Under the pieces are notes generated by a model, which was not told the DNA's origin, did not search any database, and worked only from the letters and a program-made list of their open reading frames with translations. From the NCBI GenBank assembly GCA_050084515.1, contig CM114271.1, forward strand, positions 13,640,001-13,704,000: a DNA stretch of 64,000 nucleotides, in the 5' to 3' direction. This stretch comes from Blasia pusilla. Lineage: Eukaryota. How positions within the stretch are numbered: the first letter of the stretch is position 1; each line of letters begins with the position of its first letter. This document shows positions 18,716 through 50,665 of the stretch, piece by piece. The position numbers were made by a program, and so were the translations under genes.

Positions 18716-18974
18716 TGGAGAGAAATCCACTGAAAGAAGAAGGAGAAAGTGCACAAACACCACATATACTTACCTAGCCACTTGCAAGGATAAAGGCATG
18801 ATATCTAAATGATCCTTGAGCAAGGTTTTGAGTCAAGGGCAAGAAGCAAGGAAGTGGGGAAGGTTAGTGGAGTTGGGTGAGACGTCGTGAGACAAGCTAC
18901 AAAGCACAAGGATCGGCAAGAAAATCATGAGACACCAAATGATGGACATGGAAACACATGTTTATCAATAAGGC

Positions 18975-19491
18975 TGTCACGTCCTTTAGGATAGATCGGT
19001 GAGATATAGTAGAGCGTCTTCAAGAGTAGTGGAGGACAGGCCTAGGAGGTTGAGGATGACCTGCTGTGGCCCCGGGAAACCTGAGAGAGCAGGTTTCCCC
19101 TTCGTTTTGGCTCATTTGGAGCCATATTGAGGAACTTACTATTTTAGGTAAATACCATTTTGAGTATATGATCGACTTTGTATTTTTGGTAAGTGGCCCT
19201 TGACCTCCTACATCAGGTCAAGAGCCAAAGAGGTGACTTGGGAGAATAGTTTACCATGGAGAGAGCTTGGGAGAGGGGAGGGGTATATATCCCAAGGAGA
19301 GAGAGAGCTTGAGAGCTCATTCTCTCTTTGTTAAACCTCTTGGCATGAGGCGGCGGAGCTATGGTCCCTTGCCTTGTGAGTGTAACCCAAGCCTCTCATT
19401 AGGAGAGTGGGTTTGGTTTGACATGAGAGAGAGTGCACACCTTTGAGAGCTATGGTGTGAGATTGTGTAGAGAGAGATTGGATCTTACTTT
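18975..19491 (+). repeat. Terminal repeat A1 of copy 1
   Basis: Near-identical to 29732-30250 (about 8 substitutions and one 2-bp indel by eye). Contains TATATAT at ~19284. Not followed by B. Confidence 0.95.
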
Positions 19492-21386
19492 ACAAAGAGA
19501 TAATGAGAGAAAGAGAGAATGCGAGAATGAGAGAGTGAGAGAGCTTCATGGGGGAGCTCGCTGGTCACTCGCTGTTTTTGAAGGTTGGGGACCGTGTTCC
19601 CCGTTGAACGGCTCATGGGAGTGCTCATCGGAGCACGGGTTGCTTGGATTGTTTTTTGCATTTGTCGATTTTTCGTGTGGAAGAGTGGCGCCGGAAGCGC
19701 TGCCCAATTTCTGATAGGGATTGAGTATGGGAGCGGGTTGCCCCATGCCAGTGCTTTCAAGAGCACCATGTTGCTTTCTGATTTGCATTTTTATAGGTTT
19801 TACATTTTTGTTGGGAGCAATCAGCGCGGAAGCGGTGCCGAATGTTGGGTAGAAGAAAGAGACATTGGGCTTTACGACAGTCCTGGTTAGTTTTTACTGG
19901 AATGTTCGATTCCAAACATTTTTTAATACTAGCGTAGATCGTGAAGCTGTGCACGATGTGCAACAAAAAATTGCGCAATTTGGAGTTGCAAGCAAAAAGT
20001 TATGGTCAATCTTGCAAAACTGCCATTGCTAGGCGATTTTTAGGGTTAAATTATGCAAACCCTAAACCAGGCGCCACACCGGAGGCGGCCGTCGCCGTCA
20101 ACCTTCAACGGTCAACTTTCACCATCAACGGTCAACCATCACCAGCGACGGTCAACCGTCAACCGTCACCATTCGTCTGTCACCATCAACAGTCAACCGT
20201 CACCGTCAATGGTCCACCGTCCGTTGTCCACCCTTGGTTTCCATTGCCGCCGTTACGGAGTGGAGGGTCTTCCACAACGTTCGTTGATTCTCGGACTTGC
20301 GTCACGATCACATACTTTGTTTTGGCCGCCACTGTCATCAACCTGTGATGGCATATGACCTCATGTTATAGTGTTTGAGTTTTGATTTCCTGCTGCTATG
20401 TTGTGATTGGTAGCCGCTCAACGACGACCGAGTATCGTGCCATGACGTCCGTAGCCACAACTCGCCGCCGATTGCCGCGCCGTGCAGCTCGTGGCCGCAC
20501 CGCACCGTCTTGATCGCGGAGCCGCTCCAGCATTGTGGAGCAGAGTGTGGGTTTATTGTTGATTGAGGAGGGTATGCCGCTGAGTGCGGCATCCCATCAT
20601 CGAGGGCCATGCCGTTCGTAGCCGTTCCGTGCCGCCTGCAACGCCGCACCATTCCGCTGGAACTGCACCGTCTATCGAAGAGTTTTGAGCAACGTCAGTA
20701 CAGGAGGAGTATGACTTGCTGATTGGAGGAGTTGTCTCCACGTCCGAGTTGGGGTCGAGATTCGCAGTTGCTGATGGAGCGACATCGACATGTGTTCAGG
20801 TTACTCATTCTAGTCCTTTACCCTGCACGTGTGAAGGATTCTAGGATTTGGGTAGTTTATTTGGAGATATTGGATGTGTGGATGCTGAGAGCATAATTTA
20901 TGTATGTGATTTAGGGGACATAGACCTATGTGGGATGTCCGGAGTTGAGGGTAGGTTGTCGATGAGATGATAGCCTGGTCGATTTGCCGCACCATGCCGC
21001 TTATTGCCGCACGTTACATATCTCGGGGAGAGAGAGTGGAGATCGAGTGCCGCATGTTTGGGATGAGTGATTGAGGGATTACTCGCGAGGCAAGAGTGAT
21101 CGGGTGAGAAGGGCACGAGGGTCATCAAGGCGTCCGTTCGGGACTTTGAGAGGCGAGGTGGTGAACCCGAGAGTAGCTCTAGAGGTTTTACGCGGAGTGG
21201 CCTGAGGTTCCAAGGATCTTCACTTCAAGGACCACCTCGACCTCCTTCTGTGTCATCGTCATACGAGGGGGAGGGTGTAGAGGAATTTGTGAGCACATTG
21301 CCACACTTTGTGAGTGGTCCTACAAGTTGGGCGTACGAGATGGACGACCGGGGTAGAGGTTTTCAAGTGCAGTAGGTACGATTGAG

Positions 21387-22362
21387 TTGCACGATTTCAT
21401 AGCAGAGTTTAGGAGTTGGTGCGACTCCGAGCGGGCCAGGAACTCTAGAGAGTTTAACCCGTTTACAACATGGAACGGTATGTTTCAACATTTAGAGGGG
21501 GCACCCATGGACGATTACCATGAGTTTTCCCACAGATATGCCCAGGAGATTGAGGCATGGCGATTCTACTACGACCCATATTATGTGTCATGGACGGAGC
21601 CACTCCCAGATGAGGAGGAGGAGTCAGGACAGGCTACTTCCTCTTCCACTAGTGATGTTTTAGGAGGGGTCACTCGCATTGGAGCAGTTGCACCGTCTAG
21701 TCGAGTTCGTCTTAGGTTCAACCCCGTGGTTGAGTTCTTTGCTGAGTTGAGGGCGAGCTACCAAGGGGTATGGATGGAAAAGTTGCGGAGCATCCACAAC
21801 TTCCAGAGGTGCCCGAGTGAGAGTTTACGTGAGGCTTACACCCGCTTGCGCCGGTTGATCAACGTCACTCAGGGGTTGACAGAGGCTCAGACTATCCAAT
21901 CATGGTACGCGATGGTGGACCAGACCCTACGGCCACGGGTGCGGGAGGGGGTTCTTCTTATGAACACCTCCCCTACGTTGAGAGATGTTTTTAGGACCGC
22001 CGAGAACATTGAGCGCAACATGGCAGAGGAGAGTGTAGCCACCATGGGTTCTGGGCGAGAGCAGTCGCGATTGGCTGCACCACCTGTGCAGCAACGTGGA
22101 CTCCGAGATGGGTCAACTGTGGCATCACGAGCTCAGGGAGGATACCGGGAGCCCGTGGCACAGAGACCTGCGCCTTCATATGCGGCTCAACAGCAACCAC
22201 CTACTATTACTTGTTGGTCATGTGGGGGAGCCCATCATCAGCGCCACTGCACTTGTCAGGGTCATGGACGTATGCCTTAGCATGGAGGAGGAGATGGTGC
22301 TGCACCAGGAGGTTATCAGTGTGACTATTATCAGAGGTATGGTCATACACGCGCCAGGTGTT
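21387..22362 (+). pseudogene. gag with two zinc knuckles
   Basis: Retrotransposon gag-like FQRCPSESLREAYTRL; knuckle CWSCGGAHHQRHC; second knuckle CDYYQRYGHTRARC after a frameshift (intact as CDHCHRYGHTRDRC in copy 4). Confidence 0.85.
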
Positions 22363-22574
22363 TCAATTTACATCCTGAGCTACGTTCGGACCGAGGGCCA
22401 GAGAGGGCACTAGAGCGAGTAGCCGGTCCGGGTGGGCCTAGAGATTGTGCACCAGGTGGTCCCGTTGGGGGACGAGGAACTGGATTTGCCCGACAGGGTG
22501 GTGGAACTGCCCGTGGAGGAAGTAGAGTACCACCACCTAGACGCGCCGAGGGAGACGCCGGATGTGAGGCTAGG

Positions 22575-23663
22575 ATGGCTGCTGAGATACAGCAGCTACA
22601 GGAGCAGATTGTTGCTATGGCATTGAGGTTACCCGATGCCGGATCCGTGGCATCGACATCATATGGAGCAGCTAGAGATCTGGAGGATCTTGGTTGGATC
22701 TGCGGGGTTGCCAAGATGGAGGCCGCTGCAGTTGTGACGCGTGGAGCAGCCGCAGAGTTGGATCCACAGCGAGGGGAAGCCAGAAAACAGACTAGACTTC
22801 CTCAGTCTTTCACGTTGTCCGAAGTGATGAGGACCCCATCGATGAGTCCTCATCAAAGTTCCTTGGGAGTTGGTGATGTTGTTGGTGTGCAGGCACGGAG
22901 GGTGATGGGAGAAGTGAGTGCGAAGACTCCTATTGTTGATGCTCAGGAGGGGCATGTGTCGAGCATATTGTTGGGGGCGGCCACCGTTGTGTACCGCACT
23001 CCTTTATTTTCTGCTTCCGATGTTATGACGTTGGGGGGTACGCCCGCCGAGGCTTTTCGGTTGGCCGCGTCGCTATGTGAGCGGAGAGTTGGATTTCCTG
23101 CATCACGTTCAGAGGTAATTGCAGAGGAGGTGATGGACCTGCCCTTGGAGCGGATGCTCGGACCGTCCACGTCAGATTCATGGCAGGCTGCGGCTGCTAG
23201 AATGGCGGAGATGCCCACTAGACCCGCGATAGAGCGTGCCATGGCTTCTCCTGGTGTTGTGTTGCTGGATAACCGAGGAAAGGTCTTCCAGTTGGTGAGT
23301 CCTGGAGGTAGAGCTTTTAGTCCGCAGCGCGTCTTGTTGGATTCAGGAGCGCAACCCTTGATGTTGGGGAAAGCGTCATTCAGAGGATTGGGCTTGACGA
23401 GAGCCGATATGGAGCGTTTTCCATTCCGGATACAGACATCCTTGGGTGGAGCGAGTACCACACAGTATATCACCCGACAGGAGATTGTGGTGAGGATTTG
23501 CTCGGGACATCCTACTGATGAGTCTGTGGTGGGCGCCAAGGCGATAGTGACTGATGTAGAGTCCTACGACGTCTTGGTTGGTGGAGCAGTGTTATACCCG
23601 ATGGGGTTTTCCCTGGATTACTGGGAGGAGTCAGCGCCCCATGACCAGGATGGCGATCGGTGA
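22575..23663 (+). pseudogene. Retropepsin-type aspartic protease region
   Basis: RVLLDSGAQPLML active site and YDVLVG C-terminal motif. Confidence 0.85.
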
Positions 23664-24048
23664 TGGGCGCCTTAGCTCATTACCCATTCGATTCACAGGT
23701 GCAGTGATCGAGCAACGGCCAGGAGAGATGGCGACCTTAGCAGCATTTAGCAGTGCCATCACTTGGCCTAGTGATTTGATTGAGGAACATGTCCATGCAG
23801 AGGATACTCCCATTCTTGACATTTCTATGGAGAGGAGTGTTATGGTAGCCGCATCATTCCATGGAGGAGAGGTGCCGTTGTGGGGCTCGAATGAGGAGCC
23901 TCAACGATTGGCAGATGAGCACGTGGAAACTGCGTGGAGCGAGGCTTTTGCACCGGAGCGTGATGGGTGTGAGGAACCCGAGGTAGCAAGGAGTGCTATG
24001 ATGACACCCTTGGATATCACACCCATTGTGTGGAGTATCCCGGAGAAG

Positions 24049-24995
24049 GGTATTCGAGTATTAGATCTCTTTGGAGGGATTAGCACGGGGTTAGCTGCTG
24101 TTTTGCAGGCAGGAGTGCGAGTGCAGCAGTATCTATATGTGGAGAGTGATGATGTTGCGAGGCGTGTCTCACTACAACATGTGGCGCAGTTACGCCTACG
24201 TTTCCCGAATTATTGTTTGCGTCCGCGGCACAAGGATACCAAAGTTCCCTACCGAGGGATATTTCGTTGTTGGGGGCGCAGGACTTAGAGCGGGTAGGGA
24301 CCATTGATTTGGTCATTGTCGGTTGGCCATGTCAGGGCCAATCGAGTGCTGGACGAGGCAGCGGGTTGGTTGACACTCGGTCCAGGTTGTTTTGGGAGAT
24401 GTTGAGGGTCTTACGGCAGTTGCAGGAGCACCGGTCTTGTTCTCCAGCCTACATTTTGGAGAATGTGCTGATCTTAGGAGACTCCAGGTCACGGGTGGTG
24501 ACGAGTGCTCATCAGGTGGGTGCCTGGATCGGCCCAACAGTGTTCTTGGATGCGGCGAGTGTAGGTTCTAGAGCCCATCGCCCATGTCTATGGTGGACCA
24601 ACTTGGTGCCCCATGCGGTGTTATGAAGGGCGTATGCGAGAGTGGAGCGCCCCTCCCATTTGTTAGTGGATTTCATTCTGGATCTAGGTCGTCAATCACA
24701 AGCAGTGAGGCACGATGATCGACCATCGTTGACTGTGGTCAACAGGGTAGGCAGGCCGCGGGTTGCCATGCCCACGTTTGTGAGTTTTCCCGCTTCCTAT
24801 GCATACAAGGAGACCGGTCCTGGCTTGGTTTGGGATGACCAGGTTCAGCGGTTAGTGGAGCCCAACGCCGACAAGAGAGAGCGAGCGATGGGATTTCCCA
24901 TAGGAGTGACAGCAGTACCATCAGTGTCAGAGGCATCATGATGCCATGTCTTGGGTCAGGCGATGGACCTGAATTGCTTGACATGGATCCTCAGC
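24049..24995 (+). pseudogene. DNMT3-like C5 cytosine DNA methyltransferase domain within pol
   Basis: Motifs in canonical order: I IRVLDLFGGISTG, II YVE, III RDI, IV DLVIVGWPCQ, RSRLFWE, VI ILENV, VIII RAHRPCLWWTNL, IX ERAMGFP, X LGQAMD. One frameshift and in-frame stops. Confidence 0.92.
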
Positions 24996-25399
24996 TTGGG
25001 AGTGGCTGAGCAGCGTCGTATGAGATCGCGAAGATCACGGCCGGTTGCAAGCAGTGAGCCCCATGCCTACCGAGACGGTGGAGGCAGTGGCTGGGGGCGA
25101 GACCCGAGGAGATCGGGAGAGACACCCTTGGACTTCTTGGGATGTTTTGCAGCGTACGCAAGAAGATGATAGCCACAACATCGAGTGTGGTTTCGGGCAC
25201 TGCATGTGGAGGAGTTCAGAGTTTGCAGTTGGCTGCAGGAGAGCGGCCGAGTGTTGTTGTTCGAGACCGGGTTGCACCATAGCAACCACCGATACCCACA
25301 CCGGAGAGTCCTACCGTAGTCACGATGGAGACTTGGGAGCCACATATGGGCCCTAAGTTGAAAGGAGGAGAGCGGCGCCGAATACATCAGTTCCTCATG

Positions 25400-27400
25400 A
25401 GTTATAGGAGCTGCTTTGCGTTTAGCATGGAGGATTTGGGTACGCTGAAGGGATCGGGGATCCGCATTGAGTTGTCGAGTGATACGCCAATCTTCTGACG
25501 ACCCTACAGGTACAGTGATATGGAGAGGGCTCTGATTCAGAGTAGGAGCCAGGACTTGGTCAGAGCAGGACTAGTGGAGATGTCGCATGGGGAGTATGCA
25601 TCTGCCGCTCTCATGCCCGCCAAGAAGGATGTGCATGGCAACTGGACGGATAGGCAGATGTGTGGGGATTACCGACCTATCAATCGGCAGACGAAGTCCG
25701 ATAGGTATGCCATGCCCACCCATGAGGAGATCTTTGATGCGATTGGTCATGCAAAGGTCTTCAGTTCATTGGATTTGCGAGCCGGATACCATCAGCTGCC
25801 TATCAGATTGGAGGACAGGCAGAAGATGGCATTTTGGGGCATCGATCCTCACGGGAAGGATTGTTTGTACCAATGGCGGTTCTTACCATTTGGGTTAAAG
25901 AACGCCCCGGGTGAGTTTCACAGGGTCATGGATAGGATCTTGGCTGGTTTGGATTTTGCTAGGTGTTATATTGATGACATCGTAGTCTTTAGCGCCACGG
26001 TTGAGGAGCATGAGCGACATCTAGAGGAGGTGTTTTGACGATTGCAATTACATGGGCTGAAGCTACATCCAGGCAAGTGCAAGTTCCATTACGACCAGAT
26101 TGAGTACTTGGGTCATACGATATATATCCAGGGGGCCTTGGTGTTCAGCAAACGAAGGTAGAGGCTATCTGTCGCGACCCTCATGACCAAACAAGTGCCA
26201 AGCGGAACATCGGAATATTAGCGGGCTCACGCTAAGATGGTTTGCGCGTTGGAGTGTCTCAAAGAGGAGACAAGAGACGAGACGCGAACGAGGAGTCGCG
26301 TTTCAGTTGTTATGGTCGCGACTAAGAAACGTGGACCAAACGCGGAATGAGACTTGGAAGAAGTCGAGTCTAGGAAGTGGGTTGCCAAAGGGAAGATCCG
26401 GATTTGGAACGCCACTAGCGTTTGAGAGTTTCCGACTGTATTTATGGCCATAACTTTTAGCTCCAAGATGCGTTTGGAGAAAATAAGGGTGCGATGGAAA
26501 GCTTATGGAGAGCCGGTCCAAACGCACTAGAGATTGCTGCAAACGCATAAGCAGCGGCTGAGATACGACCCGAAAACGACTGTAAGTGGAGTCGGGTTGA
26601 GGGCCACAATGAAGGGCCCGACCCTCTTTTCCCAAAGGGGAGGGGTTATTGGAGAACCCCAGAAGTACTAGTAAGGGGGAAGGTCTCCGAGAGTGCTTGG
26701 AACCCAAACCCCACTTTGGGCGCCGCGGGGCGGCTCAAGGGCATGGAACGGAACGCGAGTTTGGGCGTTGGGTTGGAAAACCTGCACCAAGTCCATTGAG
26801 GTGATTTTAGACATCCCTCTTGGAATTCACACCGCGACTCAATTACTTGGGTCTCGGTTCAGAACTCACCCGAGGACCGTTGAACAGTTGGGATCGCTAG
26901 GTGCGCAAGGGCCGTTTCAGATCCCTGGACCAACCAGGAAGTCTGTTCCAAGTCTTGAAGGACTTGCCATGTTTTGGAAGCTAGGAACTAAGGAAGGTTG
27001 AGCTTGATGAGACGCCGAGTTGAGGACTCGGTGGGTTGGAACGCCGGTTGGCCCAAACCCAACTAACGGAGTGCGTGTTTGGGTGCAGATCGGCGATGAG
27101 TTCGTGACCTATTGAACGCACGCTTCCGCAACACTAAAGATTAACGTTCAAGGAGAGTAGGGGCGCGACACTATCTCACGCATTCCACGCCCTACAGATG
27201 TGAGCCATGTTCGCGCATTCATGGGATTGGCGAACTTCTATCGGTGATACGTGAAGGGATTCAGTTCAATTGTGAAGCCATTGGCCTTGTTGACGAAGGT
27301 GAATCACGAGTGGCACTAGGGGGATGAGGAGGAGCGAGCATTTCAGTTGCTCAAGGACAGGTTGACTTCTGCGCCCATCTTGAGGAGACTGATCAGGGGG
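25400..27400 (+). pseudogene. Gypsy-type reverse transcriptase, interrupted by a solo LTR
   Basis: MCGDYRPIN, SSLDLRAGYHQL, LPFGLKNAP, YIDDI. KVEAI/SRIPRP rejoins when 26170-27170 and one TSD copy are removed. Confidence 0.93.
26170..27170. mobile_element. 1001-bp solo LTR of an unrelated retrotransposon inserted in RT
   Basis: TGTCGCG...CGCGACA termini; 5-bp TSD CTATC (26165-26169, 27171-27175). Confidence 0.88.
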
Positions 27401-27412
27401 TGTCCTTTCTAG

Positions 27413-27886
27413 TTGCACACAGATTGGAGCATGTTGGGGCTTGGAGCCGTGCTCACCCACCATGATGATGAGGGTAGAGAGTTCGTGGTGGCTTATGCTA
27501 GCCGCTCGAACAACGCTGCAGAGGCAAAGTACAACTCGTATGAGGGTGAGTGCTTGGCTGTGGTATGGGTTGTCGCGCATTTCAGGTGTTACTTTTTCGG
27601 CAACCCCTTTACCATCATCACTGATCATCAACCACTGAAGTGGTTGATGGAGTCCAACAAGCTTACAGGGAAGCTTGCGAGATGGGCTCTGTTGTTGCAG
27701 GAGTATGATTTTCAGGTGGTACATAGACCTGGGACGCTCAACCAAGATGCAGATGGGTTGAGTCGTAACCCATGCCCGAGTCAGCGAGATGCGACTGGAG
27801 CTCGATGGCATGGAGAGAGTGATGAGGAGTTGGTGCCAAGATGGCACGCGTCAGCCTATTTAGGCATGTTGGCTATGGAGAGCTAG
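27413..27886 (+). pseudogene. Gypsy RNase H
   Basis: LHTDWSMLGLGAVL, VAYASR, YEGECLAVVW, TDHQPL, LARWALLLQEYDF, NQDADGLSR. Confidence 0.93.
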
Positions 27887-28149
27887 AGTGTGGAGACTTC
27901 GATGGCGAGGTCTAGTGGAGAGTCCTTGGATCCCGAGGCCAGTGAGGAGACGACAAGTGGTAGAGATATTCATGATGATGGAGTAGTCTTGGAGTACCTT
28001 CGTACTCGCAACGTTGCGAGCACCGTGGATGCTAGAGAGCAGGATCGGATCCTATATCGGGCCTGACGGTTCCGTTGGGAGGGGTACATATTTTGAGGGT
28101 TTGGGAGGATGGCAAAGTACACGTAGTGCCGCATCCTTCGTAGAGAGCA

Positions 28150-29215
28150 CGACTAGTGCAACATGCCTAGGAGGAGTTGGGTCACTTTGGGGTGAAGCGG
28201 AAGTACAGCTTGCTCCAGATTCAATATTGGTGGCGAGGCATGCAGACTGACGTTCAGCAGTTTGTTGCCAGGTGCATGGTGTGTGATCGGGTCCGAGCAT
28301 CGTTCAATGCTCCGACTCTACAGTTGCATCCATTACCGATCATGGGCTTAGGGTATAGATGGAGTTTGGATTTTGCAGGACCTTTGTCTTTGACGGTGCG
28401 TCACAATCGTTATGTGTTGGTGATGGTCGAGCACTTCTCGAAGTGGATCGAGTTGGTTGCATTGCCTGACAAAGCGAGTGAGGGAGTAGCTTATGCCTTC
28501 CTTGACAGAGGGCTAAGTCATTATGGCACACCGGATGAGGTGTTGACAGACCAGGGTACCGAGTTTAGCGGTGAGTTCCAGGCCTTGTGTGATCACGCTC
28601 TGATCGACCACCGCACGACATCGCGAGATCATCCCGAGGCGGATGGATTAGCAGAGAGAGTTGTGCAGACGGTGAAGAGGGGTTTAAGCAAGTTTGGCTT
28701 GCAGAGAGGGCACCTAGGAGATTGGGACCTCCAGTTGCAATGGTTGGAGATGGGATACAGATTCAGCAGGCAGGTAGGCAGGCATCCTTAGCGTCTTTTT
28801 CACCGTACTTGCTACTTTATGGCCGAGAGCTAGATTTACCTGCGGCCATTTGTCAAGATGCTGGTGAGTTGCTAGACCTTAATGACCCAGATGTATGGGT
28901 GCGAGCATGTTCTCAGAGGGCTGAGTTGTTTCGGAGAGCGATGCCCATGGCGTTCGATAACTTGGCGATTGCGCAGCATCGAGATACGTTGAGGTATGCG
29001 ACTATTCGGGATGGTGGTTATCGACCAACTATCCGGAGGTTTCATCAGGGAGATTATGTCTACTTGCAGTAGACGGCACTGACGACGTTGGATGTGACTG
29101 CAAGGCGCACTATCTTGAGAGTGCGTGACGTTTTGCCATCCGGTGTTCTCTCGCTGGAGGGACGCGATGGTATGGTATGGAAGGACCATGTGTGTAATTG
29201 TGCACCATATCACCT
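28150..29215 (+). pseudogene. DDE integrase
   Basis: GHFG...CMVC zinc-binding region; core WSLDFAGP, LTDQGTEF, GLAERVVQT. Confidence 0.93.
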
Positions 29216-29273
29216 TCCTAACATTGATAGTACAGTGGATTCGAGCTTAGCAGTAGGTCCTGCAGGCTTGTAT

Positions 29274-29414
29274 TGTATGTTGTGTGGTTCTGCCCGTTGT
29301 GCGGCCACGATGCTAGTCTGTGATGGTTGTTCGAGAGGTTGGCATATGGCATGTCTGACGCCACCTCTCACTAGGGTTTCTCGAGGACAATGGATGTGTC
29401 TCAGATGTACATAG
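29274..29414 (+). pseudogene. PHD finger at the C-terminus of integrase/pol
   Basis: CMLC...LVCDGC...WHMACL.PPL...GQWMCLRC is a C4HC3 pattern, followed by a stop. Confidence 0.9.
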
Positions 29415-29601
29415 AGGAGATACTAGGTAGGTTTCGATCCCGACCTTTTTCTCTGACATGGATGACAGGAAGGCGACTAACGATGGGGCCACATGAGCAC
29501 CCAGCCTTCTTGCTCTTAGCGTCTGAGAGATGTATGCCATGGTAGGTAGGGATAGATGGCTATCTAGAGTTAGAGGGACCTAACCACCAGCTATGGGGGT
29601 G

Positions 29602-29729
29602 ATTGGAGATATTTTGGTACTTCGTGTCTCGTTGTTTGGATGGCATGAGTTAGCATGGGATCGTGCGTGTTTGTGTGAGTGTTCAGTGATAGCGATGTAT
29701 GTTGTGTAGCGATATGTATGCGCACGACA
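29602..29729 (+). repeat. Repeat B1 of copy 1
   Basis: 128 bp, attggagat...cgcacgaca; matches 30251-30378. Confidence 0.95.
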
Positions 29730-29731
29730 GC

Positions 29732-30250
29732 TGTCACGTCCTTTAGGATAGATCGGTGAGATATAGTAGAGCGTCTTCAAGAGTAGTGGAGGACATGCCT
29801 AGGAGGTTGAGGATGACCTGCTGTGGCCCCGAGAAACCTGAGAGAGCAATTTTCCCCTTCGTTTTGGCTCATTTGGAGCCATATTGAGGAACTTACTATT
29901 TTAGGTAAATACCATTTTGAGTATATGATCGACTTTGTATTTTTGGTAAGTGGCCCTTGACCTCCTACATCAGGTCAAGAGCCAAAGAGGTGACTTGGGA
30001 GAATAGGTTACCATGGAGAGAGCTTGGGAGAGGGGAGGGGTATATATCCCAAGGAGAGAGAGAGAGCTTGAGAGCTCATTCTCTCTTTGTTAAACCTCTT
30101 GACATGAGGCGGCGGAGCTATGGTCCCTTGCCTTGTGAGTGTAACCTAAGCCTCTCATTAGGAGAGTGGGTTTGGTTTGACATGAGAGAGAGTGGACACC
30201 TTTGAGAGCTATGGTGTGAGATTGTGTAGAGAGAGATTGGATCTTACTTT
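29732..30250 (+). repeat. Repeat A2 of copy 1
   Basis: Copy of 18975-19491, separated from B1 by a 2-bp GC linker. Confidence 0.95.
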
Positions 30251-30378
30251 ATTGGAGATATTTTGGTACTTCGTGTCTCGTTGTTTGGATGCCATGAGTT
30301 AGCATGGGATCATGCGTGTTTGTGTGTGTGTTCGCTGATAGCAATGTATGTTGTGTAGCAATGTGTATGCGCACGACA
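30251..30378 (+). repeat. Terminal repeat B2 of copy 1
   Basis: Copy of B1; ends CA, followed by TSD AGGC. Confidence 0.95.
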
Positions 30379-35329: not shown

Positions 35330-37400
35330 ATCTAGCATCATCGATGCCGTCATACCGACCACATCTCCCAACACATACTTGTCCGTGGATCCATCTCACC
35401 TATCTCCACCTAGAGATATCAATTTATTTGATATCATCGTGCAACATTACAACTACGTGCCGTGATGATCCTTCTGAAGAGATCTAACACTCTTGCACCC
35501 TCCTCTAGACCCTACCACACAAAAGGTGTGGTATCTGAAGATATCAAGTCTCTCGTCCAAAAGCACAATTTTCATCTGGCTTTGTTTGCTCCAAGACACA
35601 AGAATAGCTCCACGCTTGCCTCATGAGCTTGTCTGCACTCCTTTGCAACTCAACGTTTATACCCAACAACGGTAAAGAGGTCTTCCCACCATGGGAAGAC
35701 ACCCACCCTGGCATGTCTCTCTGTGGGACTATATGCTACTAGGATGTCCTCTGTAGGGTTCTTATATCCCACAACTCTCTTGCCACCTACTCACTACATG
35801 TGAATGCTGCCTACGTGGTCACAGTATGGTCATGTAGTCGACCATCACTACGCCCTGCAAACTGCACCGGTAGATGACTCACCCTTCCATTACCTGATCT
35901 CCATCCTCGCCGATAAGAAACAGTATCCTTCCAAAAATCAAGGATGAAACTAAGGGTACAACATTGTACTCCCTACCAACACATCATACGGCTCTACTGG
36001 TGTTGTAATGGTTTGAGTGCGCACCATTGCACAATCCGACTCATGCTTTGGTTGGAGTCTAACAACTTACTCTTGTCGAGTCATGTATTGTGTGGGTGAC
36101 ATGCCCCCAATAGAGATCTTTATGTGAAAGGGATAAGGTTCAATGTCCCCTTTTTGTAATCCCAATGCCAAACATGCCACCTTCCCTAACATCAAGGGCC
36201 ACGCTCCCGAATCAAGCAGGACGCATTGCAAGAAATATACTATACCTATTGGACTAACTAAGTGAAACACTCTAGCTCACTTATCCAACAACACCACTCA
36301 TGGTGTCACCATGCCTCGCTCTATGGCTGGTCAAGCTGGCATATCCACCAACTTTGCCACAGTAGCTTGCCATGACTGAGTGGGGGATGTACCGAGCTCA
36401 TGCTCAAAGGTTGCATGGAAATGGACAAGTCAAGACATGTGCACAGACATGCCACTCAATTACCTGCGTCCCGCACAGACATGTCTATCCTAGGGATGGA
36501 CATAAGTCCGCGGACATGGACTTTGTTCGTGTGCAAGCCGAACATGCTCCGAGTGTAGGTCCACCACCTCCTCACCAACCTCCTCAGAACAAGAGGAAAT
36601 CACCTCTCCACGCTCACACATTGTGGCAGCCAACCGGAACACCTCTGCTAGTCCAACCCCCATCGTCGCCAATTCCATGACGGAAAAAAATAGAGCTTGG
36701 CTCACTCTAGTGGCCACCTCCAGCAATGTGGTCAACTCTAGCTCTACCCGAGCCAACATTGGAGATGTCTCTCTAACTGCTTGTGACGTGGCCACACCTA
36801 CCTCACATGTGGGTACTACTAGTGATCTAGGCACCATCGATGGTATATGTAATGCCTCCCACAACGTAAACGACCGATGAACCCTGTCTTGTCACCCATC
36901 AATTCCCTCCTAGAGGTCAATCTCAACCCCAACCCTTGGTGGCTTGGTCACTCTCATAGCACCCCGAGTCACCACCGTAGCATGCTCAACCAGATCCACA
37001 TTGCACATAAGCCTCAGACCTACATAATCTCCCCCGTATCCTGATATGATGGGGAGGATGGAGCCACACTAGCTACTCTTGTCTTTGTGAATGTCACCGG
37101 CCGCATCATCGTCATGGTAGCAATCCTCTGTTCCAAGTGATTGATGCGAGTGAGGAGCATTGCATCGGATGCACGTCCTCCATCTCCTCTAACTGGGGGT
37201 GGAACCCTACCACCACGGTCATCAACTCCTTGATCTCCACCAACTCTCTTGCCCCCAAGATCTTGGCCTAGCTCTTGGCGAAGATCAAAACACCTATCCC
37301 TAGTGTGACCATATCGGTGACAATGGTCACACTACGACTGTGGTGGGGCCATCCTAGGTGAGCAATCCCTCTGCCTGTGGGGCCCACCATTGAGTATTAT
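35330..37400 (-). mobile_element. Fragment of DNMT-gypsy family (copy 4): gag knuckle, protease, start of DNMT
   Basis: CDHCHRYGHTRDRC (~37290-37331), CVLLDSGAWPLMLG (ORF 36067-36270), DTTPFVW*GLEEGARVLDLFRRII (~35465-35535). Confidence 0.85.
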
Positions 37401-38590: not shown

Positions 38591-40228
38591 TTACGGGTGC
38601 ACGGCGAAAGAAGGGACAATGACTCTCCAGTCTCTGTAGTTGTAAAAGCTCATAGGCATGTGCGAGTCGGAAAGCCAAGTGCAAGAATTTGACGAAAAGT
38701 CGAAAACCAACAAAGTCCTGTTTGGGTGGTCGTTGGAACCTTCTTGCTGCCATACATACATAATCTCTCCTCTGCCGGCGCACCTGAAGTTGTAAGATTG
38801 ATGCAGTGGCGGCGGGTTGCCGCTTAAGCTGTTCAGCAGAAGTGGTGGCATCTCCTTCGCTTCCAAAACTAGTATCTCCTCTTCATTGAGCGAATCGGCA
38901 GAGTCTGTAATGTCTACAATCTCCAAAAACTCTATGGTCTGCGGATGGAGGATATTGAGGATCCGGCTCCATCCTTTCAGCACCAGAATGCTGCCCCTGT
39001 GTGCCACCAGTTGAAGATAATGGAGACCAGACGGGAACGTATATTCTGATGGGAGCTCGATTTGACTCCATTGCTCTTTCTCCACATTGAATTTCAGCAG
39101 CTGGCTCGCTCGATTTTGATCCACAGCTGCGCCTAAGCAGTACATGTTCCCATTGCTGCACGTGATCGCTTGGTCGTAAAATTCCACCCCCGGCGGCACC
39201 CTGGCCACCTTCTTCCATAATCCCGTCAAGGAGTTGTACACGAGCGTCGTCCGATTGCAACCCTTGTAAATTCCTGCGACCACAAGCTTGTAGCCATTTT
39301 TTCTGCTGCTGCTGCTGCTACCAGCGACGATGACGCTCAATCCAACTACAATCTCCCTCCCTTGGCAGATGGAGAGCCACGTGCTTTTGGCCGGAGGCGG
39401 TGGCATACGAGACTCTTGATCTTCGGCACAAGGAATTTGCAGCCGTCTCCAAGTTTTGGTCATCGGATTGCACACGATGAATTCTCCGAAGGATGCTTTA
39501 GTTGCATCCACTCTCTCGAAACAGAGCAGGCCACCGCCGGAGGCAACCAGCCACAGGGAGGCGCCATCCAGCGGAAGGAAGAGCAGAGGCATCTTTTCCC
39601 ACCTGTTCTGGCTCGAGCTATACACTGTGAGGGTTCCGCGGTCCCAGTTGAGGAGCACGCTCCGTGAAGCGTAATCTGATCGGTGAAGATAACACGACGA
39701 TGATGGAGAAAGGATGAGGTTGTTCCACTGCTTGCACACGCGACGAAATTGAATCAGACTCGAGAACGGAAGCTTTGCCAAAACACGTTTGAGAAGGTCG
39801 TCCGGAAGCATCTCCCACAAACTGGGACTGAGATCATCGCCGAATTCGCTTTCAGATGAGTCCAACGATTCGCGCCGTTCTTGTTCTTCTTCGCCATTTC
39901 CATCATCGTCAAACTCCCTCAGTTCGCCATCGTCCTTACTCTTAGATCCACAATAGAAGTTCATTGCGTGCTCTAAGATGAGTCCTTGTACATCGGTACT
40001 GCGGCAATCTCCTGAATGCATTAGATTGCACTCATTTTCTAGATCTTCCTTGGCTTCACTACTAATAACCTTGCGACTGCGTTGAGTCTTTCGCGGATTC
40101 CTTTCTCCACAGAGAGTTGGACTCATTAACGATTGTAGGCCATATCTGATCTCTTTGTTTCCAGCATACGTCGGATGAAGGTGCCCACGCTGTTGTGAAT
40201 TCCCTTCCGCACTACAGCAGGTTCCCAT
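38591..40228 (-). CDS. Intronless F-box protein with a C-terminal kelch/FBA-like beta-propeller region
   Basis: Open 545-aa frame from ATG at 40228. F-box LWEMLPDDLLKRVLAKLPFSSLIQFRRVCKQWN; downstream LVASGGGLLCF, VCNPMTKTWRRL, YKLVVAG, VYNSLTGLW typical of plant F-box/kelch-like proteins. Confidence 0.9.
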   Translation of the reverse strand: MGTCCSAEGNSQQRGHLHPTYAGNKEIRYGLQSLMSPTLCGERNPRKTQRSRKVISSEAKEDLENECNLMHSGDCRSTDVQGLILEHAMNFYCGSKSKDDGELREFDDDGNGEEEQERRESLDSSESEFGDDLSPSLWEMLPDDLLKRVLAKLPFSSLIQFRRVCKQWNNLILSPSSSCYLHRSDYASRSVLLNWDRGTLTVYSSSQNRWEKMPLLFLPLDGASLWLVASGGGLLCFERVDATKASFGEFIVCNPMTKTWRRLQIPCAEDQESRMPPPPAKSTWLSICQGREIVVGLSVIVAGSSSSSRKNGYKLVVAGIYKGCNRTTLVYNSLTGLWKKVARVPPGVEFYDQAITCSNGNMYCLGAAVDQNRASQLLKFNVEKEQWSQIELPSEYTFPSGLHYLQLVAHRGSILVLKGWSRILNILHPQTIEFLEIVDITDSADSLNEEEILVLEAKEMPPLLLNSLSGNPPPLHQSYNFRCAGRGEIMYVWQQEGSNDHPNRTLLVFDFSSNSCTWLSDSHMPMSFYNYRDWRVIVPSFAVHP

Positions 40229-41684
40229 CAATTGCCCTCTCCCGCTAACAAATCGAGATGGAGATGGAGAAGGAATCGGCGGGCGAAAGGCGCTCCTCTG
40301 ATCCTCTCACTGAAAGCGAGGAAAAGTCCAGCCGGATCTAAGATATTGAAGATGCCATACGAAGATCGACATAACCTCTGAACTACCAGAAGAAATCGAA
40401 GCTAGACGTGGACATTCCAGTCATAGATGAAATCCAACTGGATCGCAGAATCCCGATTTACATCATGGTTGACTTCTAATGTCAATTTGCTGTGTGCCTC
40501 GTGATGGGAAGAACGTCCACCTTCCTAGGAAATGGGGGCAGAAGCAAGTGACCGTCAGCTTTCGACGAGCTTTACAACCACATGCTTCTTGAATAGGAAT
40601 AATGTCTCGAGGGGCAAGACAGGCATGGTTGCGTAAACCCATGATTAGGCTGACCAGTTACTAGTCAAGCACTGTAAATTGATGGGGCAAGCAAGGGCCC
40701 AACATCAAGGTTAGTAGGGAGGCGACTGGGTCAAGTTCTGGAAATTGATGTCACCTGCTGCATCAACATCCAGGAGACGAGTAAAACTTACCTGTCACAG
40801 TTATATTCGGACATTCAACATCTGTCAACACGAAGAGCAGATGTCGCAATGTGCGGCACTTCCGCATGACATTGTTGGAAAATGCCGATGAATCAGGCTA
40901 CTGTATTAAGATTACTGTTAGCTGTAAGGATGGTCGCTCCATCTGCCGCAGTGCCCGGATGAATTCTAGATATCAGAGCCCTGATTCTTGGCTACGTCGT
41001 GCTCAGAAAATCTTGGCGGTCACCTTCTTCTCACATATCTTCGGACCGGTGTTTCAAATTCTTACACGGAAGATCATGAATCTGTAGTCCTATTCTCGTT
41101 CACAGCCTTGGCACACCTTGCTTCTACCTTGGGATTGAGATGGGCAAAGTTCTCCCTACGACTTTGTTTAGGCTTCTAAACACAGGCGTATAGGCGAGGT
41201 ATGTTATTGGCTGTTTAGGAGAGGATTTTGAAGGGGCACTCTCTTCGTCTGATTGTTCCCAACAACAACAATAATAATTTCCAAACACAACACGGTAACA
41301 TTTTCCTCTATTTTGAGAATTAACTCACTGTAGTCTTCTTTCGTGCGCATTACTTTTCCCTTTATTCTTGCAATTCAAATAATACTTCTAAGGCAAATCC
41401 GTGCAATATCCTATATACTAAATGAAAAGCTTACATAAAAAAGAAAAGGAAATTAAGTTATTATCATTAATTTAAATAATACCAGAAAAAAAGAGATTGC
41501 AAGTTCAAACCATCTAGGGAATCTTCCTCTCTTTCTAGGGAAAGGATCTTGGTCCAGAGACATTACAAGTTCATCTCATAATCTCTCCATATTTTCACAT
41601 CTACTCCATAAATTGAGGACAAGAAGTCTCCGACCCTCGCTTGCCATTGTAGATGGATATTGAGTCTGAAGCGGATGTGGTGGC

Positions 41685-43560
41685 TCTCGTGCCAGTAGAC
41701 ATCAATGCAAACAGACATCGGCTTTCATGCACACAAGTCTAACATCTATCTAACTATGAATCCTAACACATCTACATATGAACGACTGGACAACCCAACA
41801 ATAAAATGCCACGTTGATCAAATGTGCAATCAACTATGCCTAGTCCAAGAATCCACTCAATGATACACAGTCTGCAATGAACTCTCAATATGTGTGATTT
41901 CCGATCAAACCTATTTCATTCTTCAAAAGAGAATCTAGGCTCAATACATGCAAGTTACATTGTATCATGGATCCCAACATGGGTTTGATCTAAGGAAGAT
42001 GAACTTTGAATGAACTTCATTCGAGGTACACCCCCCTTGGGCACCTCCCCGGGTGACTTGCACACACAGGTAATCTCCTCCTAGCAGGTCACCAACGACC
42101 TAGAGAACACAAGGTACTAACTCCCTAACAACTACATACAAGGTCCTTTCATAAGGTCAACTAATACTCAACTCAAAACTAAAACTCAAACCCTGTAGGC
42201 CCAAGTGGTTCCACACAAAGGATAACATGGTGAACCTCCCCAAGATTGCTACTTCTCATAAAGGGAAGCATGACCTATGGTTGTAGATCACCTCCTAAGA
42301 GCATGTCACATATTACCTCTTAAAATGGGGAAGTACAAGACCCATCTAATATAAGGCCTCAATACTATTTCTCCTTACATCTCATCTACCATAATAGTTG
42401 TCATGTAAGTTGACATCGTTGCCAACATAGATGCGTTGTCATGCACACAAGTCTAAGATCCATCTAATTATGAATCTAACACATTTACACATGAACGACT
42501 AGAAAACCCAAATCATCCCTCTAGCTGGTGGTTAGGTCTAAGTATAAATATTATGCACCTTTCTGTGCTAAGATCAAGAGGTTGGGTGCTATGTTGCCCT
42601 ATCATTAGTCACCTTCTTGCAATCCATAACATCAAGAGTCATCTTGTAATCTACTTATAATATCTATGTACATTTGGGGCAAAATCAACGTCACTAAGGA
42701 ATCAAATGAAGAAGCGGTGTCGAACAAAAATATATGCCATACTTGAGAACACCCATCATAGACTAGCATCGTGGCTACTCCGTTAGAAGACCCATACAAC
42801 ATACATCTCAAACTTGTAGGAACAAGTGCCAAACTCAGATCAATAATCCCATCCACATTCAGAAGATGATATGGTGCATAGTTATGTACATAATCTCTGT
42901 AAAGGGGGACCATCACAAGCTTCTAAAAAAAAGTACAGTTTCCTAAAAGTAAAAACTCTTGTCGTAGTACTTGCAGAATAGTGCATCCTATTGTCACGTC
43001 CTATGTTGTTGATGCCATTTGCGTAAGTAGACATAATCAACATGATGGAATAGTCGTATCCCTTATTGATACCTCAGAGTATTGCGATGCCAAGCGATAG
43101 CGAGGTTCTTAAATGCCATAAGCATGGTACTCCAAAAGATCTCAGTCGGTTGAGAATATGCTTGCATCCAAAAGTCTGGGTCATCAAGTTCAAGTACTTA
43201 GACCACATCTATACTAGCTCTCTCCCATAGAGCAGGAAATACGATGAAAATAATGCCAACCATGCTTGTCGATTGGAGCAATAACCCATTGCACCAACCA
43301 TAAAAATTATAGGTCCCAATCTCTTAAGTGTCCTCTTTGCAGCCGATACTTGCGTAATGCTCTTCTCACTATTTGCAAAACTCTCTCTGCCAAACCATCT
43401 ACCTCCAAATGATCTCGAGAAGTTGACCGATGACCAATCACCACCTGATGCCACAAGGCATGAAAATCACCCCTAAACTCAGCACCCTAGCTTATCAACA
43501 CCTCCGCTGATGCGCCAAAATGAGTAAGCTCTCAATCAATAAATGCATAAGCGGCTCCAA
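41685..43560 (-). mobile_element. 3' fragment of DNMT-gypsy family (copy 3): integrase end, PHD remnant, B-A-B repeats
   Basis: B copies at ~41685-41800 and ~42399-42512, with A between them; PHD remnant CMLYGSSNGVATMLVYDGCSQVWH; integrase remnant FSSYFLLYGREL. Confidence 0.85.
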
Positions 43561-45153: not shown

Positions 45154-48100
45154 TGTCGTGCGAATACACATCGCTGCTAACATACATCAATTGTCATGCA
45201 TACACATGTCTGAGATCCATCTAGCTATGAATCATAACATCTCTACACATGAACGACTAGACAACCCGAATATAAAGTTGAATATGCACTGTAAACTCTA
45301 ATGAAATCTACAATTAACCATGCTTCATCCAAACAGCCATATTCGTGAATCAGATACTACACACTGTTGTTACAGCAAGAGAAAGTATACACAAGGACTC
45401 CCAAAATATGTGATCCTCCTTATTGATCGCTCCAAACCCACTCTTCAAGAGAGAATCCAGGCTCAATACATGCAAGCTGCATCGTATCACGGATCCCAAC
45501 ATGGGTCTCCAATCCTAAGCAAATGAGCTCGAAATGAGATTCATCATAGGTATACCCCCCTAGGCACCTCCATGGGTGATCTGTACATACACGTCACGTC
45601 CCTCCTAGCAAGTCACAACCAACCTGTAGTACATAAAGTACTAACTCTCTAACAACTACACATGTGGTCCCCTCATGAGACCAACTACCAACTAACCCAC
45701 GACCCTATAGGTCTAAGTGGAGTCATACATGGCTGGGAAGGTCAACCTCTCCAAGGTTACCACTCCTAAGAGCACGTCACATATGATCTCTCAAAATAGG
45801 GAAGTACAAGACCCCTTTAAGGCCTTGATACTATCTCGCCCTACACCTCATCTACTATGACAGTTGTCATGCGAATACAGATCGCTACCAACATACATCG
45901 GCTATCATGCACACACATATCTAAGATCCATCTAGCTATGAATCCTAACATCTCTACACATGAATGATTAGAAAGCCCCAATCTCTCCCTAGCTTGTGGT
46001 TAGGTCCCTCTATCTCCACATAGCCTACAAAACAAGTCTAAATGCTATGCATCTTTTCGGTGCTAAGATCATGAGGTCGGGTGTTATGTTGCCCCATCGC
46101 TAGTCACCTTTGAGCAATCCATAACATCAAGAGTCATCTTGTAATCTACCTATCACCTATGTACATAAGGGATAAAGCCAACGTCCCTGAGGAACCAAGT
46201 TAAGAGGCGGCGTCAAACACGACATATGCCATACTCAAGAACAACCATCACAGACTAGCATTGTGGCTGCGCCTCTGGTGGATCCACACAACATGCATCT
46301 CAAGCCTGCAAGAATAAGTGCCAAGCTTGGATCTTTCCAAACGGTACCATCATGACCCTATAAAACTAGGACTCCTGAAGGTAAAATCTCTCGCACTCGC
46401 AGAATAGTGCATCCCGCTGTCACATCCAATGTGGTTGGTGTTGTCTGCTATAGGTAGATATAATTGCCAAGATGGAATCTCCAAAATCCTTTTCAATAGC
46501 CTCCTCCACGCGTAGTCGCATACTTCAGAGTATCGCAATGCTAAGCGATAGCCAAGTTTTCAAACGCCATAGGCATGACTTTCCAAAAGAGCTCAACCCG
46601 TTGAGAACACGCTCGCACCCATACGTCTAGATCGTCGAGGTCAAGTACCTCAACCACATCTCGTCGAATTGACAACGATCACTCTGCTCTCTCCCATAGA
46701 CCAAGGAATACGGTGAAAATGATGCCAAGGACGCCTCCCGACTGAAGCTGTAACCCATCGCCAACCACAGCAAGTGTAGGTCTCAATCTCCTAAGTGTCC
46801 TCTCTGCAATCCATACTTGCACAATCCTCTCTTCATCGTTTGCACAACTCTCTCTGCCAAACCATCTGCCTCTGCATGATCTTGAGAAGTTGTACAATGA
46901 TCTATCAGTGCGTGATCGCACAAGGCCTGAAAGTCACACCTAAACTCAGTACCCTGGTCTGTCAATACCTTTGCTGGTGCACCGAAATGAATAAGCACTC
47001 GATCAAGAAATGCATAATCCGATCCCTCACTTGACCTATCCAAAAATGCTATGAACTCAATCCACTTGGAGAAGTGCTCCACCATAACCAACACGTACCG
47101 ACTATGGCGTCTTGTCAATGGTAAAGGCCCCGCAAAGTCTAAACTCCAACTATACCCTAATCCCTTGATTGGTAAAGGATGCAAGTGTGGTTTCAAAGCA
47201 TTGAATGATGCCCCTACCTATCACATGTACATACAATGCATCTGGCTATAAATTGCTAAACATCAGTCTCCATACCATGCCACCAATATTGAATCCGAAT
47301 CAAGCTCTACGTACGCTTGACTCCAAAATGCCCTAACTCCTTGTGAGCATGTCTCACAACTTGTGCTCGTTGCAAAGCATGCAGCACCATCGGCACTTGT
47401 CCATCCTCCCAAACTCGAAGCACATGCCTCCCCTCCCACCTGAACGTCCTAACTCGATGAAGAACTTGATCCCGCTCTCTAGCGCCCACCGTGCTCGCTA
47501 AGACACATGTGCGTAGGTACTCCAAGACCATCTCATCGTCGTGGATGTCTCCAGTCCCTATTAACTCCTCACTAGCATATGGATCTAAGGACTCACCATC
47601 CAACCTCCCTCCTGGAGTGGATGCCTCCTGTTGACTTGACATAGCCAACATACACAAATAGGCAAATGCATGCCAACCCGACACCATCTCCTCATCACTC
47701 TCACCATGCCACCTCGCTCGAGTCGCATCGCTTTGGCTCGTGCATGGGTTATGACTCAACCCATCCGCATCTTGGTTCAGATGTCCTAGGAAATGGACAA
47801 CATGAAAATTGTACTCTTGCAACAAGAGTGACCATCTCGCAAGCTTATGTGTAAGCTTGTCAGACTCCATCAACCATCTGAGTGGCTGATGATCAGTGAT
47901 GAGCGTGAAAGAGTTCCCGAACAAATAACATCTGAAATGGGCCAATGCCCACACTACAACTAAGCACTCCCCCTCATAGGAACTTTACTTTGCCTTCGCA
48001 GCATTGTTTGAGCGGCTCGCATATGCCACTAAGAACTCCTTCAACTCATCATCTCTCTAAGTGAGCATCGCTCCTAACCCCAACATACTCCAGTCCGTAT

Positions 48101-49950: not shown

Positions 49951-50665
49951 TAGGTTTGAACCTCTTTAGGGTGGCTCATTTGTGCGGGCCCAACTTTAGG
50001 AAAAAAGGTAATAAATAAAAGATGGGATTATAAAAGCAAAGCAGTGGGGTTGGTGGTTTAATGGAAGAAAAGAAAAAGTAGTTTTGGTTGGTGGCTAGGA
50101 TAGTTGGGATAGTTTGGAAAATATGAAGTGAGTAAAGGAGGATATTTTGGAAGAGATAACTCGAGGGGGGCACTCTTTGTATACCTCTTACATCACCTAC
50201 GACGTTTTGGGGTCGGAAACCCCTAACTTATAAGTGAAATTTTTTTTCCTCCCCCTTACTTACTTTAAAACCGCAATTTTTTTAAAATTATAACCCCTAT
50301 ATTCTGTTAAGTAAATTTGTGTCCTTGATTTGTTTAGGGGCTTGAAAGTAAAGATAAGTACCTCTTCGCGCGGTGGTCTTGTATTGTTGCACTTGATAAT
50401 AGGCTATCAAAAGCTTTCAGCAATACCCAAGCCACTGCCAAACATAGTAATGATATGTAAGGCGGAATTACCTGCATGTTTCCATTGAATCAATATTTAG
50501 TGCAACTTCCACTTTCCCCATTACTTTGACACCTATGACGGAGAGAAATTGAACCTCTGTATTGGCAGGATGCTCATATGGCCACGCCGTCATCCCCCTA
50601 ATCTATCCCCTCCTAAAACTAGCCTATCATAAACTCACAAAATGACTTCACACATAACATGCACA

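Follow-up and report, generated by a model that had tools for sequence, protein, structure and literature searches.

The 64,000-nucleotide stretch of Blasia pusilla DNA analyzed here (the window; GenBank assembly GCA_050084515.1, contig CM114271.1, positions 13,640,001 to 13,704,000 of the forward strand) contains an 11.4-kb Ty3/gypsy retrotransposon at 18973-30378 on the plus strand, all positions being counted from the first letter of the window. This element, copy 1 of a family with further copies in the window, ends its pol frame in a PHD finger. An open frame of 113 amino acids at 29073-29414 (+) terminates with a TAG at 29412-29414, and residues 68-112 of this frame (bases 29274-29408, +) carry the zinc ligands of a C4HC3 finger in the arrangement C-x2-C-x11-C-x2-C-x4-H-x2-C-x14-C-x2-C. 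These are the last 45 residues of pol before a closing threonine and the stop codon. An earlier note, made from the sequence alone, had described a complete C4HC3 finger at the end of pol and proposed a Pfam search for a PHD as a check. The description is correct to the base. All eight ligands are present, and PF00628 (PHD) matches 29274-29408 over profile positions 1-47 of 47 with E = 6.5e-10 and 39.3 bits, above the curated cut-off of 24. PHD_2 is a weaker second Pfam match. At E <= 0.01, the Pfam scan found no RING-type family (RING-CH or RINGv) in the finger and no Chromo domain in the copy 1 integrase tail (P0001, P0002).

The 212-residue integrase tail was modeled with AlphaFold2 (AF2) from a 28-sequence alignment, with a mean predicted local distance difference test score (pLDDT) of 77.9 and a predicted template modeling score (pTM) of 0.37. 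The integrase C-terminal region (28776-29273, +) is modeled as a long helix (residues 38-78) and a five-stranded β-barrel (strands within residues 94-144), after which comes the finger. The finger directly follows the β-barrel that succeeds the integrase core, which is the chromodomain-equivalent position that the earlier note had given it. The tight Foldseek matches to the finger part of the model were DPF3b and DPF2 at a root mean square deviation (rmsd) of 0.5-0.6 Å over 47-48 columns. Across DPF3b, DPF2, BAZ2A and BHC80 the values were 0.5-1.5 Å over 46-48 columns, and BAZ2A/B, MOZ and an ATXR5-H3 complex (target TM-score 0.83) were also matched. As modeled, the copy 1 finger is a true PHD fold.

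Conservation of the finger across the family

The region comprising the integrase C-terminal region and the finger (28776-29411, with the TAG entered as X) was used as the query of search 1, which was confined to longer proteins. It gave 83 matches, 76 of them with PF00628. The best were proteins of Marchantia polymorpha (76% and 72% identity) and Calypogeia fissa, and Klebsormidium nitens, Pleodorina and Haematococcus were also represented. The same query was compared with 1.84 billion cluster representatives (50% identity), yielding 4234 matches at E <= 0.001, 874 at E <= 1e-10 and 255 at E <= 1e-30. Among the cluster matches listed, 143 of 150 align to query residue 208 or beyond, that is, through the finger. 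The family that carries the finger spans chlorophyte algae, Klebsormidium, mosses and liverworts.

The fairest test of the finger's frequency is search 3, whose query was the integrase zinc domain and core (28171-28791) and is blind to the PHD. PF00628 is present in 88 of the 120 relatives listed by this search. Absence of the PHD from most intact family members, which the earlier note had named as grounds for abandoning its reading, is not what was found. The finger begins a median of 160 residues after the integrase core in the relatives, and 28 of the 32 listed proteins without PF00628 end less than 205 residues past the core, too short for a complete finger at the usual place. The remaining four are P0259, P0306, P0073 and P0330. 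The tail of P0259 is divergent and rich in Cys and His, P0306 has a sub-threshold PHD-like match, and two Closterium proteins seem truly to be without a finger. One integrase relative, P0301, combines a PHD (residues 569-615) with a chromodomain (768-824, slightly under the Pfam cut-off).

Each of the eight zinc ligands is 98.9-100% conserved in 183 integrase-to-PHD segments, which were selected for a match reaching the query end and show the state of the finger where it is present and not its frequency. The same segments also preserve the Asp after Cys3, a G-W before the His and the Trp before Cys7. Judged by this conservation, the finger is a stable and evidently selected part of the integrase in the Gypsy-DNMT3 lineage.

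Two more copies within the window retain remnants of the finger, detected by tblastn in the places where the earlier note had seen them. The remnant of copy 2 (copy at ~45858-49951) lies on the minus strand at about 46160-46297, has its sixth Cys changed to Tyr and contains one stop. Copy 2 also retains matches to reverse transcriptase (RT), RNase H, rve and the DNA methyltransferase (DNMT). Copy 3 is a fragment (~42567-43558) that keeps only the first half of the finger at about 42731-42805 (-), with Cys2 and Cys3 both changed to Tyr. A weak PHD-like Cys/His stretch lies upstream of the copy 2 DNMT at 50669-50959 (-) and matches PHD-1st_NSD with E = 1.7e-4, below the cut-off.

The element around the finger

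The domain order of copy 1 is gag-protease-DNMT3-like-RT-RNase H-integrase-PHD. Self-comparison of the window showed direct repeats in the layout A-coding-B-A-B. The 5′ repeat A (18973-19492, +) is 98% identical over 522 bp to the 3′ repeat A (29730-30251, +), and the first repeat B (29602-29729, +) is 94% identical over 128 bp to the second (30251-30378, +), which forms the end of the element. Inspection of the outer ends, 18973 and 30378, showed no target-site duplication, and there is no B repeat upstream of the 5′ A. The leader at 19493-21356 has no Pfam match in three frames. The following frame (21357-23663, +) has no Pfam match either. Its read-through translation contains, by eye, the two CCHC knuckles of gag and the DSG motif of an aspartic protease, and it is interrupted by an in-frame stop at 22278-22280. 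This frame is 45% identical to residues 13-739 of the Marchantia protein P0091, the C-terminal part of which is a DNMT.

The DNMT3-like cytosine-5 methyltransferase domain of copy 1 occupies 24033-25022 (+). PF00145 (DNA_methylase) matches it within 24153-24626 with E = 2.8e-11, and the PCQ and ENV motifs are kept despite several stops. Against solved structures, its best match is DNMT3A (6e-7), followed by DNMT3B and DNMT3C, and M.HhaI reaches just 7e-4. A search with it gave 23 matches, of which twelve, including proteins from Marchantia and Calypogeia, share 57-68% identity with at least 91% of the query aligned. The RT lies at 25319-26155 (+), with RVT_1 matching 25499-26038 (E = 7.2e-20) and tblastn support from P0013 and P0043. 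The RNase H region (27167-28081, +) is matched by RT_RNaseH within 27413-27886 (E = 3e-34) and by tblastn. The integrase H2C2 zinc domain and DDE core (28090-28779, +) are matched within 28171-28791 by Integrase_H2C2 (1.7e-12) and rve (3e-14). RT and RNase H are separated by a 1001-bp insertion at 26170-27170 (+), which runs from TG to CA, has inverted ends of 7 bp and lies between two copies of CTATC (26165-26169 and 27171-27175). Copy 2 is contiguous across this site. The insertion is probably a solo long terminal repeat (LTR) from another retrotransposon.

Copy 1 is a dead, inactive relic because of its stops, its frameshifts and the probable LTR inserted in pol. When intact relatives are mapped onto it, the frame shifts near 28080 and again near 28776, and stops interrupt gag and the DNMT in frame. 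A further in-frame stop, a TAG at 29070-29072, precedes the last 113 codons. This TAG replaces the second Gln of a Y-L-Q-Q motif that is conserved in relatives, and the corresponding stop in copy 2 lies one codon earlier. A programmed stop with readthrough at 29070-29072 was considered and set aside, since intact relatives have Gln and the copy 2 stop differs by one codon. The TAG appears to have arisen from CAG by mutation and may have been passed on within one subfamily. Three proteins, P0077, P0079 and P0250 (one of them from Calypogeia), terminate precisely at the matching codon. This shared end point could mean either that CAG changed to TAG more than once or that a subfamily multiplied with a shortened integrase without barrel and PHD.

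About 1 kb was aligned among the three copies (minus-strand 42567-43558 for copy 3 and 45980-47030 for copy 2) for a count of private changes, in which G>A and C>T predominate (31 of 60 in copy 2 and 70 of 117 in copy 3). GC content is ~52% in copy 1 versus ~41-47% in copies 2 and 3. The excess of these changes and the lower GC are as would be expected of cytosine deamination in methylated repeats. Further fragments of the family, a DNMT piece and a gag/protease piece, lie elsewhere in the window at 5923-7083 (+) and 35580-37388 (-). The window also contains a Copia-type SH3_retrovirus fragment and CACTA (Transposase_21) fragments, with coordinates among 53353-53694 (+) and 61627-62373 (-). 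The sole apparent host gene among these transposon remains is an intact 571-codon frame encoding an F-box and Kelch protein at 38594-40306 (-).

The DNMT was scored in relatives by local phmmer with the copy 1 domain, its stops entered as X. Precomputed Pfam lists give PF00145 in 2 of the 83 search 1 matches, and phmmer recovers a DNMT in many more. A reading in which the DNMT is rare beside a common PHD was dropped, because the precomputed lists greatly under-report the DNMT. The sample for pairing comprised 221 proteins matching the integrase C-terminus and PHD region. A homologous DNMT is present in 39 of the 42 relatives whose match is preceded by more than 1000 residues and in all 25 where more than 1300 precede it. 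The pairing of a PHD with a DNMT3-like domain, which the earlier note had seen in copy 1, recurs across the family. The note's interpretation, a choice of targets guided by histones and possibly coupled to the DNMT, is thereby supported in part, with histone binding and target choice themselves still predictions.

The pair occurs in two architectures. In type A, the DNMT precedes the RT and the finger ends the protein, as in copy 1, P0043, P0257 and P0232. In type B (58 proteins, the named members being chlorophytes), the DNMT lies between RNase H and the integrase, with a median of 350 residues from the end of the DNMT to the integrase C-terminal region. After the type B finger, the protein usually continues for more than 200 residues (200-480 in P0066, P0057, P0064 and P0031), and no Pfam domain was found in this tail in the examples scanned. 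The catalytic motifs also differ in their retention. PC and ENV are kept in 14 of 15 bryophyte-type DNMTs, and of 60 proteins with a PHD region and a DNMT, most of them type B, 17 retain PC and 15 retain ENV. Type B DNMTs often have E-C in place of P-C in motif IV and E-N-T/A in place of E-N-V in motif VI. A FastTree phylogeny of the 183 integrase-to-PHD segments, midpoint-rooted and with copy 1 itself left out, contains one 52-row clade (local support 90; the tool stars nodes at 95) that holds five of the five type A rows and none of the 66 type B rows. This clade includes the nearest relatives of copy 1 and three Klebsormidium proteins. The distribution suggests that the position of the DNMT changed once in the family.

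Ligand and function of the finger

The nearest solved relatives of the finger are PHDs of host chromatin proteins. In a phmmer search of the PDB, the best matches were CHD4 PHD2 (4.9e-12) and Drosophila Lid/KDM5 PHD1 (5.4e-12), followed by KAT6A, PHF12, KDM5A/B PHD1, DPF3, DPF2, PHF21A/BHC80, ATXR5, AIRE, BAZ2A/B, ORC1b and UHRF1. All 60 listed sequence matches are PHD-containing chromatin proteins. The finger resembles CHD4 PHD2, KDM5/Lid PHD1, DPF3/MOZ PHD2, BHC80, ATXR5, AIRE, BAZ2A/B and UHRF1 with E from 5e-12 to 1e-6 and shares with them M/L-L-L-C-D before Cys4, an aromatic residue before the His and a P-x-G-x-W loop. Unlike the finger, CHD4/KDM5/DPF3-type PHDs belong to host chromatin proteins. 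Among the structural matches, the titles of PDB entries 4q6f, 3t6r and 3zvy name complexes with the unmodified histone H3 tail. ING, BPTF, TAF3 and PYGO are absent from the 60 listed sequence matches and from the structural matches to rank 50. PHDs of the ING, BPTF and TAF3 type are cage readers of trimethylated H3 lysine 4 (H3K4me3), and the other PHD entries that were matched are, we take it, specific for unmodified H3. Cage readers have a Trp two residues before the zinc-binding His. The finger has its Trp one residue before this His, like the aromatic residue of CHD4 and KDM5 in the PDB alignments, and does not have the aromatic-cage Trp position of H3K4me3 readers. We infer that the finger is a probable reader of the H3 N-terminus with unmethylated K4 (K4me0), because its nearest solved PHDs are of the unmodified-H3 class, no cage readers are listed among its matches and its Trp is in the position described.

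With modest confidence, the finger is explained as a conserved integrase module of the Gypsy-DNMT3 lineage that tethers the integrase to H3 tails without K4 methylation. After reverse transcription, the finger would bind an H3 N-terminal tail that lacks K4 methylation, and the integration complex would thereby be tethered to nucleosomes away from active promoters. Such tethering would parallel that of the chromovirus chromodomain on H3K9-methylated chromatin. H3K4-unmethylated chromatin would be the state that DNMT3-type enzymes prefer, and the DNMT of the element would be compatible with this setting, acting on complementary DNA (cDNA), on the new copy or on its surroundings. In the copy 1 clade, the reader and the writer are probably separate cleavage products because RT and RNase H intervene between the DNMT and the integrase-PHD, and the two would not need to act as one protein.

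Several findings weigh against this explanation. In the copy 1 clade, basic residues outnumber acidic ones in the Cys2-Cys3 loop (mean 0.87 acidic versus 1.94 basic residues in 47 sequences), and it is acidic in the rest of the family (mean 2.41 acidic versus 0.75 basic residues in 127 sequences) and in CHD4/KDM5/DPF3-type PHDs. Acidic residues in this loop contact K4 in K4me0 readers. The predicted ligand is therefore less sure in the copy 1 clade and may differ there. The counts for DNMT pairing and for ligand conservation come partly from matches to a query that contains the PHD. In the Foldseek comparison, the top ten are the Tudor-plus-PHD proteins PHF1 and UHRF1 and two cytoplasmic-lattice chains, aligned over 128-165 columns, and the rmsd of 11-16 Å between the barrel with its PHD and the Tudor-PHD pairs shows just two domains in that order. 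Finally, three or more family copies in a 64-kb stretch, among other transposon remains, would fit targeting to heterochromatin and would equally fit survival in gene-poor DNA.

The finger might instead serve the DNMT, as the ADD domain serves animal DNMT3, on chromatin with unmethylated H3K4, with the choice of integration target made by other means. The PHD and the DNMT co-occur throughout the family, the unmodified-H3 class of the nearest solved PHDs corresponds to the mark that ADD reads, and in type B the DNMT directly precedes the integrase so that DNMT, integrase and PHD could be one mature protein. The position of RT and RNase H between DNMT and integrase in the copy 1 clade argues against this role, as do the fusion of the finger to the integrase in every architecture seen and the three of 42 long relatives (more than 1000 upstream residues) that have a PHD without a detected DNMT, and we consider service to the DNMT unlikely. 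A function outside histone binding, whether as an adaptor to a host factor, an element for nuclear import or stability, or a RING-like ubiquitin ligase module, is improbable to a similar degree. Some PHD fingers do bind non-histone partners, RING-CH domains share the C4HC3 pattern, and the basic Cys2-Cys3 loop of the copy 1 clade is atypical for K4me0 readers. Against such a function, Pfam gives PHD and PHD_2 alone with no RING at E <= 0.01, the 60 listed PDB matches are without exception PHD chromatin proteins, several entries being H3-tail complexes by title, and the Asp after Cys3 and the P-x-G-x-W loop, which frame the H3 groove in fingers of this kind, are conserved.

Reading of H3K4me3, which would steer integration to active promoters, is very unlikely given the absence of ING, BPTF, TAF3 and PYGO from the 60 listed sequence matches and the structural matches to rank 50, and a Trp one residue before the His as opposed to two in cage readers. 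In its favor, the PHD class includes H3K4me3 readers (Sanchez and Zhou 2011, as cited in the text of PMC6673714), and cnidarian retrotransposons with PYGO-like PHDs that recognize methylated H3K4 are described in the text of the Grau-Bove et al. preprint. Lastly, copy 1 is degenerate and has an in-frame stop ahead of its last 113 codons, which would suit a chance pattern or a host exon captured by copy 1 alone. This account has next to no probability because a search blind to the PHD still brings up the finger, identically placed, in 88 of its 120 listed relatives; it recurs in two more copies in the window, and where copy 1 has the stop its relatives have a Gln codon and continue. It was rejected on the PHD-blind search and on the Gln at the stop position in relatives. 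Tethering of the integrase to K4-unmethylated H3 tails remains the preferred explanation.

Copy 1 itself is ordinary, being the decayed remains of an element of known kind in a transposon-rich stretch. The wider pattern, a conserved reader-plus-writer pair across a large clade of the green lineage, is worth pursuit. A tentative extension, which we would sooner expect to fail in some part than to hold entire, is that an old green-lineage gypsy clade (at least 255 clusters at 50% identity) carries a kit of an H3K4me0 reader and a DNMT3-like writer that is convergent with animal ADD-DNMT3. The writer would have moved once (RNase H-DNMT-integrase versus protease-DNMT-RT) and the reader would have stayed fixed, and the elements would target H3K4-unmethylated chromatin and methylate themselves in it. 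If the finger binds K4-unmethylated H3, the family would offer a natural test of whether transposons seek silent chromatin and help to write it, and such binding would also account for the linkage of reader and writer over hundreds of millions of years of green-plant evolution. Marchantia, with many annotated gene models of the family, would be a tractable host.

Comparison with known systems

Earlier publications describe both the Gypsy-DNMT3 lineage and transposons with PHD fingers (text of PMC5890265, PMC6673714, PMC8557442 and PMC9940879). The closest described system is KnitGypsy-Dnmt3 of Klebsormidium nitens, the name under which the lineage was first reported, a gypsy element bearing a DNMT3 and DIRS-like A-coding-B-A-B repeats (text of PMC5890265, de Mendoza et al. 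2018), and the text of a preprint names Gypsy-DNMT3 a streptophyte lineage (bioRxiv 10.64898/2026.05.21.726589). As described in the text of PMC5890265, KnitGypsy-Dnmt3 has the same Ty3/gypsy order of RT, RNase H and integrase as copy 1, a DNMT3-like domain in pol and the A-coding-B-A-B layout. The authors suggested there that the element's DNMT acts on cDNA or on the new copy, and the same paper assayed the DNMTs of Symbiodinium elements for de novo activity. A PHD finger is unmentioned in the text, legends and text supplement of PMC5890265; its Fig. 4c and PDF supplements may show the domain. In full-text searches, no publication text was found that places a PHD on an integrase of the DNMT3 lineage or the lineage in liverworts or mosses; priority may lie in figures and PDF supplements. 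In the tree, the K. nitens integrase-PHD proteins group with the nearest relatives of copy 1, and they may belong to the DNMT-bearing elements themselves. The host of copy 1 is a liverwort, as opposed to K. nitens for KnitGypsy-Dnmt3, and its best matches are from Marchantia, Calypogeia and Riccia.

Chromoviruses are the textbook retrotransposons that read histone marks. They carry a chromodomain at the integrase C-terminus, which tethers them to H3K9-methylated chromatin (Gao et al. 2008 and the example of MAGGY, as cited in the text of PMC6673714 and of the Grau-Bove et al. preprint). Copy 1 is like them in having a chromatin-reader domain after the C-terminal barrel of the integrase, presumably for tethering. 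The reader of copy 1 is a PHD in contrast to the chromodomain of chromoviruses, at the same position and together with the element's own de novo-type DNMT.

Gypsy-7a_cRei of Chlamydomonas is presumably the REM1 element of Perez-Alegre et al. 2005. It is 15.4 kb long and is drawn with a PHD according to the legend of Fig. 6 in PMC9940879. Copy 1 resembles Gypsy-7a_cRei, as far as that legend describes it, in having a PHD as an accessory domain on a Gypsy pol (PMC9940879). PHD fingers are called widespread in retrotransposons in the text of PMC6673714, PMC8557442 and the Grau-Bove et al. preprint, and the text of PMC8557442 describes the PHD as a common accessory domain of Chlamydomonas transposable elements. 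Other transposons described in published text as bearing a PHD are CR1, Chlamys Penelope-like elements and Rehavkus.

The EpiLTRs are LTR elements with a chromodomain, a DAM and a DNMT that is sister to DNMT4, as described in the text of a preprint (bioRxiv 10.64898/2026.05.21.726589). Copy 1 is like these elements, on that description, in combining a reader domain with a DNA methyltransferase in a single LTR retrotransposon. The components are different. Copy 1 has a PHD as its reader and a DNMT nearest to DNMT3, whereas the EpiLTRs, as the preprint text presents them, have a chromodomain as reader and a DNMT sister to DNMT4.

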